64,000 bases of DNA, taken from the NCBI GenBank assembly GCA_963780425.1, contig CAWABZ010000001.1, positions 13,084 through 77,083 of the forward strand, given 5' to 3'. The position numbers and the translations under genes were made by a program. This DNA comes from an uncultured Chloroflexia bacterium. GTDB lineage: Bacteria; Chloroflexota; Limnocylindria; Limnocylindrales; CSP1-4. Of the stretch, positions 25,662 to 47,427 are shown piece after piece. Below the pieces are notes generated by a model. It did no database searches. It saw only the letters and a program-made list of their open reading frames with translations, and was not told the origin of the DNA. Numbering within the stretch: the stretch's first letter is position 1; each line of letters starts with the position of its first letter.

Positions 25662-25807
25662 GGTGTGCCTCTCAGACTGCAGACGGTGCTCGAAGGAGGG
25701 CTGGGGTGCGCCCCGAAGGCCCATGCGTGCTTGCGGAAGCACAGCCCAGGGTCCAAGACAGACCCACGGGCATGCTCGAGGTCCGTTAGCAGTCTGGGAA
25801 GCACACC
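25662..25807 (+). ncRNA. Candidate structured RNA or long inverted-repeat element upstream of the HTH-nuclease gene
   Basis: 19-bp stem 25662-25680/25789-25807 with one mismatch and one G-U, extended by GACGG/CCGTT and CTCGA/TCGAG, plus internal hairpins. Confidence 0.5.
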
Positions 25808-25859: not shown

Positions 25860-26626
25860 ATGCAGCGCGACCTGCCTCGCGATCGCCTCATGCAGCGCGA
25901 GGTCCAGACCCGTCTCCGTCGACTCGAACGCAAGGTCGGCGACGACCTGTTGCGATTGCGAACGGACGCCGCTGCCACGAAAGCGCAGGTCGCACGCGCC
26001 GCGGGTGTCGACCGAACGTTCTACGGTCGTGTCGAATCTGGGGATGCCCATCCGAGCCTGAAATCGCTTACGGCGGTCGCAGCGGCACTCGGGGCAGAGG
26101 TTCTGTCCGTCTGTACGCGGGTAGTGGCCCTCGGCTCACCGATCGTCATCAGGCGCGGATGGTCGAGGCCGTCCTTGGTCAGCTTCATCATGTGTGGCGC
26201 CCGCATCTTGAGGTCGCCGTGAGCCGGCCGGTCAGGGGGGTCATCGACGCCGTGCTCGAACGTCGAGATGGGCCGCTGTTGGTGATCGGTGAGTTCGAGG
26301 CGGCCCTTCCGCGGCTTGAACAGCAGATCCGATGCGATGTCCGAGAAGGCCGCATCGATCGGGTCGAGTGACCTGGTCGGGCCGCGGCCCGATGCCTGCT
26401 GTGTCGAGGTTGTTGATCTTGCGCTCGACCGAATCGACGAGGTCGGTCGCTCATCGACTCGAGGCGACCCTCCGGGCGGCGTACCCGGCCTCCACGCGCA
26501 AGGCGATCGCCGCGCTGTGCACGGGGTCGCAGTGGCCAGGCAATGCGATCGTCTGGGTACGGATCGAGGGTGACCGGGTCGAACTGCTCGATGGCCCACC
26601 GAGAGGTGTCGCCCGTAGGGCGGTGA
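25860..26626 (+). CDS. XRE-type HTH fused to PD-(D/E)XK-like nuclease domain (about 4 frameshifts)
   Basis: KAQVARAAGVDRTFYGRVESGDAHPSL HTH, then LEVAVSRPVRGVIDAVL..LLVIGEFE; pieced from ORFs starting 25632, 25844, 26289 and 26332. Confidence 0.65.
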
Positions 26627-42572: not shown

Positions 42573-44119
42573 CAGCCTGGTGCCTCCTGGGGCCGCAGCC
42601 CGACCCACGAGACCGCCCCACCGACGGCGACGAGCGCCGCGGCCACGCCCATCGCCAGGTGGAACGCCTCGATCGAGGCGCTGGCCGCGGCGGCGATCTG
42701 GTCCGGCGTCGCCCCCGGCCGTGGCGGGTTCAGTGGCGGGAATGCGGCCCTGACCGCCGCCGACGACGTGTCGATGTCCGGCGCGATGGCGGCGAGGTTC
42801 GTGTAGAAGGTCGTGCTCAACGCGAGGAAGATGACGGCGCCAAGGAGCGGCTGCCCGACCCGCGCGATGGCGTTGTTGATCGCCGAGCCGAGGCCCGAGA
42901 AGCGTGCCGGGATCGAGCCCATCAGGGTGTTGGTGAGCGGGGCGACGACGCAGGCGATGCCGACCCCGAACAGCACGACGGCCGGCAGGACGTCGATGAG
43001 GACTGCGGCGGGCGGGATGAGGGAGGCTGGCTGTTCCACGCTCGCTTTCCAGGGGGTGGAGGTCGCGGGAAGGCGCGTGAACCACAACAGGCCGAGCGCC
43101 ATCAACGCAGGCCCGAGGGTGAGGAAACGTCGCGAACCCGAACGTCCCGCGAGCGTGCCGATTCGGGTCGACAACGTGATCAGGCAGATCCCCACGGGCA
43201 GGACCGCCGCGCCGGCAGCGAGCGCCGTGTAGCCGAGCGCGCCTTGGAGCGTGATGCTCAGGTAGCTGAGCATCACGTACAGGCCGCCGTAGACGAAGAA
43301 CGTCGCGACATTGATCGTCGTGAACGCCCGTGACCGGAACAGTCCGAGAGGGACGAGCGGGTCGGGACGGGTGGCCATCAGCATCGGGAAGGCGACGAGA
43401 GCGATGGCGCCGATCGCGATCGCGATCCACGCGGCGGCATCCTGCCACTCGTTCGCGCCGCCACGGATCACGCCGAACGACAGGCCGCCCACGGCGAGAG
43501 CCGCGACGATCGAGCCCAGCCAATCGAACCGGCGCCGCGTATCGACGTCGCGCGACTCGGCCACGTGCCGCAGCGTGATCACCAGCGCGATGGCGAGGAT
43601 CGGTACGTTGACGAGGAAGGCGATCCGCCAACCGATCGTGTCGACCAGCAGGCCGCCGGCGAGCGGTCCGACCAGGGCAAGAGCCGACGTCGCCGATGTC
43701 CACAGGCCGAACGCGCGACCGCGCTCGGACTCGGAGAACGTCTGCGTGATGATCGAGAGGGCGCCCGGAACCATGAGCGCGCCGGCTGCGCCCTGGAGGA
43801 GGCGCGCGACGATCAGGACCTCGAGCGTCGGAGCGAGGCCGCACAGGCCCGACGTGATCGCGAACCCGGCGAGGCCGATGGCGTACACCCGGCGCCGGCC
43901 GTACCGGTCGGACAGTGCCCCGGCGAGGATCAGGAGCGCGGCAAGGACCGCCAGATAGCCGCTGATGACGTAGGTCTGACCCTCGAGGACGCCGACCAGG
44001 GTGGCTGGCAGCTCGCGCCCGATCCGGGGCAGCGCGGAGTTGACGATCGTGCCATCGAGGAACACGGCGCCGGACCCGATGACCGTCGCGACGAGGGTCC
44101 ATCGTTGGCGCGGCGTCAT
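42572..44119 (-). CDS. MFS transporter, DHA2 (EmrB/QacA-like)
   Basis: FLDGTIVNSALP, GALSDRYGRRR motif A, RLLQGAAGA, about 14 TM helices. Confidence 0.9.
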   Translation of the reverse strand: MTPRQRWTLVATVIGSGAVFLDGTIVNSALPRIGRELPATLVGVLEGQTYVISGYLAVLAALLILAGALSDRYGRRRVYAIGLAGFAITSGLCGLAPTLEVLIVARLLQGAAGALMVPGALSIITQTFSESERGRAFGLWTSATSALALVGPLAGGLLVDTIGWRIAFLVNVPILAIALVITLRHVAESRDVDTRRRFDWLGSIVAALAVGGLSFGVIRGGANEWQDAAAWIAIAIGAIALVAFPMLMATRPDPLVPLGLFRSRAFTTINVATFFVYGGLYVMLSYLSITLQGALGYTALAAGAAVLPVGICLITLSTRIGTLAGRSGSRRFLTLGPALMALGLLWFTRLPATSTPWKASVEQPASLIPPAAVLIDVLPAVVLFGVGIACVVAPLTNTLMGSIPARFSGLGSAINNAIARVGQPLLGAVIFLALSTTFYTNLAAIAPDIDTSSAAVRAAFPPLNPPRPGATPDQIAAAASASIEAFHLAMGVAAALVAVGGAVSWVGLRPQEAPG

Positions 44120-44151
44120 CGCGGCAGTGTCGCAGATAGACTCTCGGCGCT

Positions 44152-44859
44152 ATGCCCGGACCCGTGGCACTCGTCGGCGCCGGCGAGTTCCTCCCATCGA
44201 TGTCGTCGTTCGACGCGAGCATGCTCGCCGCGACCGGCGTTGCGCGCCCGCGCGTGGTGATCCTCCCGACCGCCTCGTTCCCGGACGGCGAGGCCGTCTT
44301 CAGGCGCTGGGCGGATATGGGTGTGGCGCATTTCGCGGGTCTCGGCGCGGAGGTCGAGCCGGTCATGGTGCGCGATCGTTCCGATGCCGACGACCCGGCT
44401 GCGGTCCAGGCCGTCGGCGAGGCGGACCTCGTCTACCTGTCCGGCGGGAAACCGTCCTACCTCCTCGAGGCGCTGGCCGGGAGCGCGGTCGGTCGGGCGT
44501 TGGCCGCTGCCCATCAGCGGGGCGCGGCGCTCGCCGGCTGCTCGGCCGGGGCGATGGCGCTGGCCGGGCACTCGTTCGACTTCCGCGTGCGCCTGATGCC
44601 GTTCCCGCTGCGCTGGGGGAGTGGCTTGGGGTTCGCGCCGGACGTCTCGGTGGTGCCGCACTACGACGCCTGGCCGGAGCCGTTCTCGGCCATGATCGCG
44701 TTCCAGGCACCGCGCGGCTCGACCGTGCTCGGGATCGACGAGGACACGGCCGTCGTCGGTCACGACGGCGGCTGGCAGGTGCACGGAGCGTCGCGGGTCA
44801 CGGTCTGGCGCGGCCGGCGCAGGGAGCGATTCCGCGCTGGCGAGGTGTTCCGGGTCTAG
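44152..44859 (+). CDS. Peptidase S51 / cyanophycinase-like (class I glutamine amidotransferase fold)
   Basis: ILPTAS, YLSGGKP, GCSAGAM nucleophile, VPHYD, GIDEDT. Confidence 0.8.
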   Translation: MPGPVALVGAGEFLPSMSSFDASMLAATGVARPRVVILPTASFPDGEAVFRRWADMGVAHFAGLGAEVEPVMVRDRSDADDPAAVQAVGEADLVYLSGGKPSYLLEALAGSAVGRALAAAHQRGAALAGCSAGAMALAGHSFDFRVRLMPFPLRWGSGLGFAPDVSVVPHYDAWPEPFSAMIAFQAPRGSTVLGIDEDTAVVGHDGGWQVHGASRVTVWRGRRRERFRAGEVFRV

Positions 44860-44987
44860 GTCGGGGCCGGGCGGCGGCCGGCGGCCGGCTCGTGCCCTGG
44901 TCCCCGGCGCGCGTGGCCGGCGGCGACCCGGCGCGGTCGCCGACCCAATCGTCAACCCTCTCGCCCACCCTGTCGCCCACCCGTCGC

Positions 44988-45302
44988 TTGGAACATCCCC
45001 ATGTTCCGTCGCGCACGTGAAGCGGGGTTTCGAGCCCCTTCCGGTGCGATCTGGAACGTCACCGCGTTCCGAACCGCGCCGGAAACCACGTCGCCCAGGT
45101 GCTTACGCTGAGTTCGTAACGTCGGGAGGTTCCACCGGCCTGCTTGGAACATCCCCATGTTCCAATCAGCGAAGGGCAGCGCCCTCGGCTCCGGCTCGAT
45201 CGCCCATTGGAACTCTATGGATGTTCCAAACGGCGAAGCAGCGCCCGATTCCGGCGGTCACTCCTTCGCTCAGCCTCTGATTGGAACCTCGTGATGTTCC
45301 AA
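44988..45302. repeat. Array of five interspaced palindromes TTGGAAC-N8/9-GTTCCAA
   Basis: Copies start at 44988, 45051, 45144, 45207 and 45281; gaps 41, 71, 41 and 51 nt; copies 1 and 3 share CTTGGAACATCCCCATGTTCC. Confidence 0.8.
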
Positions 45303-45312
45303 ACGCGAACGA

Positions 45313-45500
45313 GGGCCGGGATGGGCCGGATGCGCCGGGCAGGTCCGGGATAGGCCGTAGAGCCGAACGCGCCGGGATGGCCGGTTGGCCGGGTATGGCC
45401 GGACGCGCTGGGCCGGATGGCCGGATGGCCGGGTAGGGCCGGGATGGGCCGGATTGGCCGGGTGCGCCGGGTAGGGCCGAACTGCGCCGAGATGGGCCGA
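45313..45500 (+). repeat. Degenerate 9-10 nt GC-rich tandem repeat (GCCGG-core units)
   Basis: Runs such as GCCGGGATGG GCCGGATGG CCGGATGG CCGGGTAGG over about 190 nt. Confidence 0.75.
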
Positions 45501-45529
45501 CCGCGCGCCGACCCCGCCCGAGGACCCCG

Positions 45530-45868
45530 TCAGTCGGGCCGGACCGTCCGGAAGCAGTCCGAGCAGTACACCGGGCGGTCCATCCGGGGTCGGAACGGGA
45601 CCTGCGCCTGGTTGCCACACGACGAGCAGACCACCGCGAAGTACTCGCGATCGGGACGCTCGACGCTCCGCTCGTAGCCGCGCGGGCCGCCGATCTCGCG
45701 GACGTCGTAGCCCCCATCGCGGGCCGCCCGACGGCTGGCGCGGCAGCTCGTGCACCGCTTCGGGTCGGAGGCGAAACCCTTCTGGGCGTAATACTCCTGA
45801 TCGGCCGCCGAATGGATGAATTCGACGCCGCAGTCGACACAGGTGAGGGTCCGATCAGCGTAGGTCAC
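45530..45868 (-). CDS. Zinc-ribbon / CxxC-x17-CxxC domain protein (probable nucleic-acid binding)
   Basis: TLTCVDCG.EF.HSA.DQEYY..KGF...PKRC..CR and VCSSCG..AQVPFRP...RPVYCSDCF; GGAGG RBS. Confidence 0.9.
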   Translation of the reverse strand: MTYADRTLTCVDCGVEFIHSAADQEYYAQKGFASDPKRCTSCRASRRAARDGGYDVREIGGPRGYERSVERPDREYFAVVCSSCGNQAQVPFRPRMDRPVYCSDCFRTVRPD

Positions 45869-46236
45869 GTTGCTCCTCCGGGACGCGGTGGTCGGCTGGG
45901 TGCGCCTGCGGAGGGCGACCGCATCGGCAGTCGGGAAAGCGAGGTCTGGCGAGAGAAGCCGGGCCCCGGCGACCCAGGTGCCGATGTCGGAATCCCTGTC
46001 TGCGGGGCGCACCGGTTCGTTCGTGCGGCGCAGGATACAACGGCTTCGAAAATCGGACATACCAGCGGCGTGAAGCCGGCTGGCGGCCGTGACAACGTAC
46101 CTGTCACAATGGCGCGCGAGGATCCGGGCTGGCGAGCGGGGAGTCATGGGGGCGCCTCGCTCGCGCCATACCATCAGGGGTAGCGCCGGATCGTGATCGC
46201 CCGACCCGTCAGCACTGAGAGGGCAGACCCGAGCGG

Positions 46237-47427
46237 ATGCTACGGATCATCCACACCGCGGACGTCCACCTCGGCGCGCGCCACGACGACCTCGGTGAGC
46301 AGGCCAGCGCCCAGCGCGAACGCCAATTCGCCGCCTTCGCGGCCACCGTCGATCTGGCGCTGGCCGAGAAGGTCGACCTCGTCCTGATCGCCGGCGACCT
46401 GTTCGACAGCAACGTCCAGCCGCGGCGGTCGGTCGAGCGCGTTGCCGCGGAGATCAAGCGGCTCGCTGGCGGCAAGATCCGGACTGTGATCGTGCCCGGG
46501 ACCCACGATGCATACGACCGGTCGTCGATCTACCGCGCATACGACCTGAAGGCCCTGTCCGGGAGCACGCCGGACGACGACTGGGTGACGGTCCTCAGCC
46601 CGGAGCTGCCGCGGATCCACCTGTCGGCCTGCGACGTCGTCGTTCATGGCCCCGTCTTCGCGACCAAGCGTGCGCCGCACAGCCCGCTGCGCGACCTCGA
46701 TGTCGCGTCTCACAAGGGCACCGCGACGTGGCAGGTCGGCGTTCTCCATGGTTCGGTCGCGATCCCCGGCAAGACGGACCGCGACGATGTCGTCATCACG
46801 ACCGACGAGATCGGGACGAGCGGCCTCGACTACCTGGCGCTCGGCCACTGGCATTCGGCGCGCCAGGGCAAGGCCGGCGGCGTGACCTTCGCCTACTCGG
46901 GCGCCCCGGAGCCTGTCGCGCTCAACCAGGATCGAGCCGGCAGGGTCCTGCATGTCCAGCTCGAGGCGACCGGTCCCGGGCGCACCGTAGGCGTCACCGA
47001 GCGATCGGTCGGCAAGACGCGTTTCGAGAAGTTGGAGCTCGACGCCGCCGGAGTGACGACCCAGCCAGCGCTGATCGACAGTCTCAAGCGCAAGGGCGAT
47101 CCCGACCTGGTCCTCGACGCCCGGATCGTCGGCGTGCGCCCGGACGAGCTCGACCTCAACCCCGAGGAGATCGAGACCGCCCTCGCTCCGTCGTTTCTGA
47201 AGGTGCGCGTCCGCGACCTGAGCTCGCCTGCGCTCACCGAGGGAACCCTTCCATCACCCGACACCATCTCCGGCGCCTTCATCCGCGATCTCGAGGCTCG
47301 CATCGCCGAGCTCGAGGCGGCACCCACGTCCGACTCCAGCGTCGACACCGCGGCCGAAGCGGCCGAGCTGCGCGACGCGCTCCGGCTAGGCCGGCTCCTG
47401 CTGGACGGCCACGAGGTGTCCCTGTGA
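46237..47427 (+). CDS. Mre11/SbcD-like metallophosphoesterase nuclease
   Basis: HTADVHLG, AGDLFD, PGTHD, LHG, ALGHWH, YSGAPE. Confidence 0.9.
   Translation: MLRIIHTADVHLGARHDDLGEQASAQRERQFAAFAATVDLALAEKVDLVLIAGDLFDSNVQPRRSVERVAAEIKRLAGGKIRTVIVPGTHDAYDRSSIYRAYDLKALSGSTPDDDWVTVLSPELPRIHLSACDVVVHGPVFATKRAPHSPLRDLDVASHKGTATWQVGVLHGSVAIPGKTDRDDVVITTDEIGTSGLDYLALGHWHSARQGKAGGVTFAYSGAPEPVALNQDRAGRVLHVQLEATGPGRTVGVTERSVGKTRFEKLELDAAGVTTQPALIDSLKRKGDPDLVLDARIVGVRPDELDLNPEEIETALAPSFLKVRVRDLSSPALTEGTLPSPDTISGAFIRDLEARIAELEAAPTSDSSVDTAAEAAELRDALRLGRLLLDGHEVSL

Follow-up and report, generated by a model that had tools for sequence, protein, structure and literature searches.

A REP/BIME-like family of compound palindromes in a Limnocylindria genome, with an HTH-nuclease-like protein as its candidate partner

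A tight cluster of similar palindromes lies between the 3' ends of two convergent genes in an uncultured member of the Limnocylindria (Chloroflexota), and raises the question as to whether it is a regulatory site, a structured RNA, or one copy of a mobile repeat. The locus is part of the window, by which we mean the whole stretch of 64,000 nucleotides that was analysed (C1:13084-77083 of the source genome, G000, whose assembly comprises 3.6 Mb at 70% G+C and is 85.7% complete). Between positions 44988 and 45302 we found five GGAAC-N8/9-GTTCC palindromes, where the chance expectation is none, and the pattern TGGAAC-N7..10-GTTCC gave 10 strand-hits in the window against 0.03 expected. The sequence and the five centres are as the original prediction gave them, the flanking Peptidase_S51 and treble-clef zinc-finger genes are convergent as it had stated, and TRF finds the low-complexity repeats that it described on both flanks (Table 1); the stated pairing of GTTCCAATCA (45159-45168) with TGATTGGAAC (45278-45287) is confirmed. 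The arms had been described as conserved over 7 bp, which applies in full to three of the five sites: the three downstream ones match TTGGAAC-N7..10-GTTCCAA exactly (0 occurrences in 100 dinucleotide-preserving shuffles), whereas the first (TTGGAAC..GTTCCgt) and second (cTGGAAC..GTTCCga) retain the core only, and the arm in the family logo is 9 bp long. A sixth, degenerate hairpin, GTAAC-GTCGGGAG-GTTCC, had been overlooked. The rejection of CRISPR, attC, and parS stands: unlike those of a CRISPR array, the intervals follow no regular period (28-74 nt) and homologous spacers recur from copy to copy, and the TTGGAAC/GTTCCAA arms resemble neither the RYYYAAC..GTTRRRY cores of integron attC sites nor the TGTTNCACGTGAAACA consensus of parS.

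The segment 44985-45309 is a tandem pair of repeat units, an A-type unit followed by a B-type unit, and both have the same architecture, with three palindromes (H) and two spacer hairpins (S) in the order H1, S1, H2, S2, H3 (Table 1). The hairpin logo reads tTGGAACAT-S-NN-S-ATGTTCCAa, with four free central bases that are often CCCC or GGGG, and the spacers, of ~45-70 nt, have a modest tendency to self-fold (mean z, -1.0). Each repeat unit is also quasi-palindromic over its full length and matches itself on both strands, which accounts for the nested long-range pairing noted in the original prediction.

Table 1. Features of the palindrome array and its surroundings (window positions).
Feature	Position	Strand	Evidence	Remarks
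Peptidase_S51 family gene, left	44152-44859	+	Pfam PF03575, E 2e-16	Stop codon towards array
Left low-complexity flank	44865-44982	.		(CGGCCGG)x3 at 44868-44889; within segment missing from relatives
Left 12-nt tandem repeat, TCGCCCACCCTA x3.8	44937-44982		TRF	
A-type unit	44985-45140	+	nhmmer with family profile, E 2e-29	G000:C1:58068-58223
A unit hairpins	H1 44988-45009; H2 45051-45072; H3 45116-45133			H3 degenerate (GTAAC..GTTCC)
A unit spacers				Two, 45 nt each; first self-folds, second does not
B-type unit	45140-45309	+	nhmmer, E 1e-41	G000:C1:58223-58392
B unit hairpins	H1 45144-45165; H2 45207-45229; H3 45281-45302			Spacers 45 and 55 nt
B unit tail				Conserved aACGCGAACGa
Right low-complexity flank	45313-45499	.	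TRF	~20 copies of 9-10-nt unit GGGCCGGAT
Treble-clef zinc-finger protein gene, right	45530-46174	-	Pfam PF13451, PF23477	

The array had been taken for an orphan, a single local feature, and this is not the case. In a pattern search of the genome, the strict TTGGAAC..GTTCCAA motif recurs at 11 places and the looser GGAAC-N7-10-GTTCC at 74, mostly in clusters of two to six whose spacings recur. Profile searches recover 14 to 17 copies of A/B units (14 full and ~3 partial) of ~165-175 bp; ten B units align from end to end, other A units lie at C8:59047, C13:69927, and C12:28960, and A+B tandem pairs are present at three loci, the window, C8:58841-59212, and C13:69710-70091. A C subtype of ~145 bp, with the same arms and the centre CGCCAGC, contributes 16 copies, and because its profile also matches B copies, A, B, and C form one superfamily of ~33 units. 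The compounding is BIME-like, with H-S-H-S-H units that carry conserved junction motifs (aatcaGCGAAgg and ..ctgatt). Judged by a codon-position G+C heuristic, all 12 A/B loci are intergenic (five between convergent, five between tandem, and two between divergent genes), and unit copies, found in every gene context and in both orientations, do not keep to one direction with respect to genes.

Within the genus (36 genomes), TGGAAC-N7-9-GTTCCA is frequent in six genomes (28 occurrences in G000, and 24, 17, 14, 9, and 8 in the others) and occurs zero to two times in each of the other 30; the reversed pattern, used as a control for these genus-wide counts, occurs zero or one time per genome. Several of the motif-poor genomes are assembled in only 3-20 contigs, so the absence of the motif is not an assembly effect. 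Public contigs include at least four related loci (L070, L073, L096, and L123), and most of the matches listed are unrelated single sites in Pseudomonas.

Comparison with relatives shows that copies come and go as insertions. The gene pair that flanks the array is syntenic across the genus, in ~30 congeners, and the gap between the two genes varies from 4 to 925 bp (4 bp in G021, 48 bp in G024, and 670 bp in G000), with content that is unrelated between species. The window copy together with its flanking short tandem repeats makes up an insertion of ~650 bp, and the closest relatives keep the genes 4-50 bp apart. At C7:62518-62760, an element and a 42-nt tandem duplication constitute a 355-bp insertion that seven relatives lack; in four of these, the family is present at other sites. 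Both loci are occupied in G000 only, among the relatives compared, and other loci are common to relatives (C9:234397 corresponds to L073, and C17:106244 to a locus in G233). At these two filled/empty pairs, where the empty spacers are short and variable, neither a target-site duplication nor exact element ends could be resolved. The junction occupied in the window holds other material elsewhere, with a different insert of ~200 bp in G046 (L146, G046:C1) that contains GTTCC..GGAAC pieces resembling the C type, and unrelated inserts of 780-925 bp in G001 and G008; these differing inserts mark the convergent-gene junction as a recurrent landing site.

It is secure that 44985-45309 consists of two tandem units of a compound palindrome that is dispersed, extragenic, restricted to a lineage, and polymorphic for insertion. 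We further think it likely that the segment is a mobile repeat of the REP/BIME/REPIN or MITE-like kind, with a candidate partner enzyme of a non-HUH type. The original prediction had offered three options, and the one that gains support is a BIME-like element spread by a mobiliser: the copies are dispersed, extragenic, and variable between lineages, they are insertions relative to close relatives, and a candidate partner protein can be named (see below).

The pattern of conservation bears on whether the palindromes act as DNA or as RNA. Across 15 B units, which come from at least six genomes, the TGGAAC and GTTCC arms do not vary in any of the three hairpins, and mean pairwise identity is 82% in the hairpins versus 42% in the spacers (90% and 70%, respectively, in the orthologous pair C9:234397 and L073). 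RNAalifold applied to the 15 units recovers only the three invariant hairpins, with no compensatory pairs, and folding energies have no consistent strand bias (differences of +13 to -14 kcal/mol for units; spacer z of -1.0 forward and -0.8 reverse). The conservation of sequence and not of pairing, together with the lack of a strand preference, argues for a sequence-specific DNA-binding protein rather than an RNA fold, and the alignments point to the invariant arms as recognition sites of such a protein. The option of a protein-loading site cluster is partly compatible with this, since invariant arms resemble protein recognition sites.

The same observations make it distinctly unlikely that the units are transcribed as a structured RNA, whether a protein-sequestering multi-hairpin sRNA, a processed array, or 3'-UTR hairpins that stabilise or terminate transcripts. 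A unit can be folded as five hairpins or as one long one (MFE, ~-73 to -100 kcal/mol), but neither strand is consistently more stable, and the copies lie in both orientations and in every gene context. Although the spacer stems vary yet still pair (GCGAAGG:CCTTCGC versus GCGCTTGAG:CTCAGGCGC versus GGAGCTGG:CCAGCTCC), and the loops are often CCCC or GGGG, the arms are without covariation. REPs do act as RNA elements in some bacteria (PMC3733652), but here neither a sigma-70-like promoter nor an intrinsic terminator signal was found in the window segment, and an Rfam scan of 44000-46500 at E<=1 returned no family apart from one spurious match to a plant miRNA; moreover, the window copy is missing in close relatives, and is thus not essential at the locus. 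The processed multi-unit RNA array of the original prediction accordingly finds no support, having neither an Rfam match nor strand asymmetry, compensatory arm changes, or a fixed gene orientation. Our preferred reading remains a mobile DNA repeat whose arms are recognised by a protein.

Which protein might do so? The Y1/HUH transposases (RAYT/IS200, PF01797) score in 6 of 14 control genomes and in none of G000 (85.7% complete) and 25 relatives, and a RAYT gene is likely to be absent from G000, incomplete as the assembly is. The motif was followed through the genome and its relatives, as the original prediction had proposed, and this located the family elsewhere; genes for XRE-HTH/nuclease-like proteins adjoin copies of these repeats or lie between them. 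G000 encodes at least six such paralogues. One of these genes, which is intact and encodes 216 aa (C8:25031-25678), lies between two C units of like orientation (E 2e-15 and 9e-22); another, frameshifted, at C17:105552-106204, begins ~45 bp downstream of a B unit. Close orthologues of the latter (>=67% identity) are present only in G233, G041, G024, and G186, such that the C17 clade, G000 included, is represented in five family-bearing genomes out of six, and the 30 motif-poor ones lack it. An array of three or four hairpins lies directly 5' of every one of these orthologues; the G186 orthologue carries a frameshift, as does the C17 copy in G000, and in either case this may be genuine or a consensus error. 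Synteny, with an HAD-like gene downstream, is common to all five gene-plus-array arrangements, which therefore represent one maintained ancestral event, not five. G021 is an exception, with 24 motif sites and no close orthologue of the array-preceded clade.

Flank repeats around the homologues were sought by left-versus-right flank BLAST and by profile searches. Over 275 kb surrounding 79 homologue loci, the A/B profile has matches only beside the C17 clade and, weakly, the C8 clade, where the weak matches lie on both flanks of the genes in G000 and G008. Other paralogues are accompanied by repeats of their own. At L209 and L213, the paralogue lies between repeats of 165-171 nt (E 3e-23 and 1e-15), and an intact 258-aa paralogue at C18:10680-11453 is preceded by five TTGACCG-N-CGGTCAA palindromes (C18:10340-10620) spaced at 60-105 nt. 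A second family, TTGACCG-N-CGGTCAA, is in this way linked to another paralogue; small clusters of it also occur at C8:44438-44614, C9:137277-137339, and C12:499200-499376. By left-versus-right flank BLAST, many homologue loci are without a detectable flanking repeat. The window itself contains a broken paralogue (25860-26626, plus strand) that is split over three frames, and neither BLAST nor nhmmer finds a further genomic copy of the 146-nt structured segment upstream of it (25662-25807). G233 has a further subfamily, whose centres are 7 nt long and whose arms are hybrid (GGAAC..GTTAC and GTAAC..GTTCC), often in tandem with B-type triplets (C2:232793-232922, 945594-945855, and 994236-994570; C3:363598-363933), and the array before the nuclease orthologue of G024 is of this hybrid-arm type. 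Among the matches listed, no clean correspondence between the GGAAC and GTAAC arm variants and the nuclease orthologue emerged, and G233 has both variants.

The protein family is widespread: of 201 genomes of the taxonomic family, 151 encode it, with one to six copies per genome. Its public annotation is that of an XRE regulator; searches with Pfam, NCBIfam, and PADLOC detect nothing beyond the XRE HTH at the N terminus, and a profile search against PDB sequences likewise matched the HTH domain alone. An alignment of 24 members shows D127, E140, E142, K158, and D173 to be invariant. With a full-length AF2 model (pLDDT 84), Foldseek matches HTH proteins only, the best being restriction-modification controller proteins. 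The C-terminal domain modelled alone (pLDDT 85, pTM 0.82) has an alpha-beta-beta-beta-alpha-beta topology, and its top Foldseek hits are all PD-(D/E)XK proteins (NucS, OkrAI, Hjc, Bax1, R2 endonuclease, EcoT38I, and EndoMS), these matches being weak (E 9e-3 to 0.1; TM 0.36-0.46). The Lys of the canonical (D/E)XK is a Glu in the candidate partner. From the predicted structure, it is plausible that the C-terminal domain is PD-(D/E)XK nuclease-like.

The association of arrays with these genes could also reflect ordinary MITEs, mobilised by a conventional transposon (DDE, HUH, or serine/tyrosine recombinase) that is elsewhere or lost, their proximity to HTH-nuclease genes being a chance result of insertion preference. 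As MITEs would, the elements are short and palindromic, encode no protein, vary in copy number, and are polymorphic for insertion, but we saw no transposase gene enclosed in a full-length element that shares their ends. The assembly is 85.7% complete and a transposase gene could be missing from it, but PF01797, the sole transposase family searched, was not found in 25 relatives either. G021, with many copies and without the closest nuclease clade, fits this reading; on the other side, with ~33 elements in 3.6 Mb, occupancy of both C8 flanks and the C17 5' flank by chance is very unlikely, and other genomes, too, have paralogues that are each paired with a distinct repeat. We judge this account to be very improbable. 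In their dimensions (~130-180 bp), non-coding character, quasi-palindromic structure on both strands, and insertion polymorphism, the units do resemble MITEs and ERIC/IRU elements; terminal inverted repeats distinct from the internal palindromes were not found, the unit ends being palindromes themselves, and neither a target-site duplication at the two comparisons nor a parent IS in the search for PF01797 was seen.

A simpler role for the protein must also be weighed, in which the palindromes are operators of a transcription factor (for example, the XRE-HTH protein as a mere repressor), and the dispersed copies are a regulon or decoys that this protein does not mobilise. Arms that are conserved in sequence without covariation are expected of a dimeric HTH site. 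The array directly 5' of the HTH gene in five species has the classic layout of plain autoregulation, and the HTH domain is nearest to the controller proteins of restriction-modification systems, which bind paired palindromes upstream of their own genes. However, 5 of the 12 A/B loci, the window among them, lie between convergent 3' ends with no promoter to control, and no sigma-70-like promoter was found in the window segment. Furthermore, the copies are species-specific insertions beside unrelated housekeeping genes, the full 170-bp unit is repeated with its spacers and tail and not the sites alone, and an invariant acidic triad is kept in the nuclease-like domain. On balance, we consider the operator explanation unlikely. 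C proteins (C.AhdI and C.BclI), which have C-box operators, provide the best structural matches of the HTH domain, and the array-preceded clade similarly has palindromic sites upstream of its own gene. C proteins are ~80 aa in length and have no nuclease domain, and C-boxes are not dispersed around the genome. In contrast to restriction-modification systems, no methyltransferase adjoins the array-preceded HTH-nuclease genes.

Few non-coding elements of bacterial genomes are as abundant as REP-type repeats. The Limnocylindria family shares many properties with the REP/BIME/REPIN repeats and RAYTs of Proteobacteria (Di Nocera et al. 2013, PMC3733652): extragenic palindromes of ~22 bp in compound units with variable linkers, tens of copies whose abundance differs sharply between close relatives, sites mainly after genes or between convergent genes, and a single-copy, vertically inherited gene for a DNA enzyme that is flanked by the same repeats. 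There are also clear differences. Unlike REPs, the hairpins carry no GTAG/CGTC tag at a fixed stem end, the stems being flanked as t/TGGAAC..GTTCCA/a; GTAG follows only some C-type hairpins (three of eight), and not at a fixed, cleavage-type position. A BIME consists of two inverted REPs, whereas each unit here has three palindromes and two modestly self-pairing spacers. The host belongs to the Chloroflexota (Limnocylindria) and not to the Proteobacteria, and where a REPtron has a RAYT, we found no RAYT or other Y1/HUH transposase, the candidate partner being a protein with XRE-HTH and PD-(D/E)XK-like domains. The element behaves much like REP/BIME/REPIN repeats, and yet fails two of their defining tests, the GTAG/CGTC tag and the RAYT. 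The RAYT tyrosine transposase is the only enzyme firmly tied to REPs, and CGTC-type REPs are without a known enzyme (PMC3733652). In the literature searched, we did not find the pairing of such a repeat with an HTH-nuclease.

For the joint proposition that a protein recognises the arms and that the HTH-nuclease family supplies it, in an arrangement like that of REPs and RAYTs, we see the case as evenly balanced. More tentatively, we suggest a second, independent partnership of the REP-RAYT type, in which a vertically inherited sequence-specific nuclease recognises the 22-bp TTGGAACAT-N4-ATGTTCCAA and drives the copying of units, and paralogues each maintain a palindrome family of their own; this is possible, but we hold it with some doubt. 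Its starting point would be the three 22-bp palindromes of each unit, tTGGAACAT-N4-ATGTTCCAa, which could form hairpins with 9-bp stems, 52-136 nt apart. Speculatively, the XRE-HTH/PD-(D/E)XK-like protein might bind these palindromes, either as duplex or as extruded hairpins, and nick or cut nearby, and repair or recombination might then copy units to new intergenic sites and give rise to local tandem duplications. Short tandem repeats near the compound units would be copied along with them into new sites, and different paralogues could maintain different palindrome families within one genome. At the window locus the element is probably without a dedicated cellular function, and the 3' hairpins that it places on both convergent mRNAs, if they have any effect, would be a by-product.

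In an uncultured soil class without RAYTs, copies of a repeat family organised comparably to REPs are gained and lost between sister species, and the one kind of gene that repeatedly adjoins them encodes an uncharacterised HTH-nuclease-like protein. Were the link to hold, it would offer a testable second mechanism for the origin and spread of REP-like repeats, as well as a sequence-specific DNA enzyme with a defined 22-bp site. For annotation, recognition of one repeat superfamily in the Limnocylindria avoids the misreading of its arrays as operators or RNAs.

Two minor observations concern the surroundings of the units. Public contigs that encode close homologues of the 216-aa C8 protein are mostly 1-2 kb long, which may fit a repeat-bracketed gene that breaks short-read assembly, or may merely reflect the short median contig of the collection. 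Short tandem repeats with units of 9-42 nt adjoin palindromic units at several loci (window 45313-45499, C13:69610-69690, C7:62770-62850, and C8:25820-25920), and at both loci tested, the window and C7, they fall inside the lineage-specific insertion; such repeats may be by-products of breaks or of replication stalling at the hairpins.
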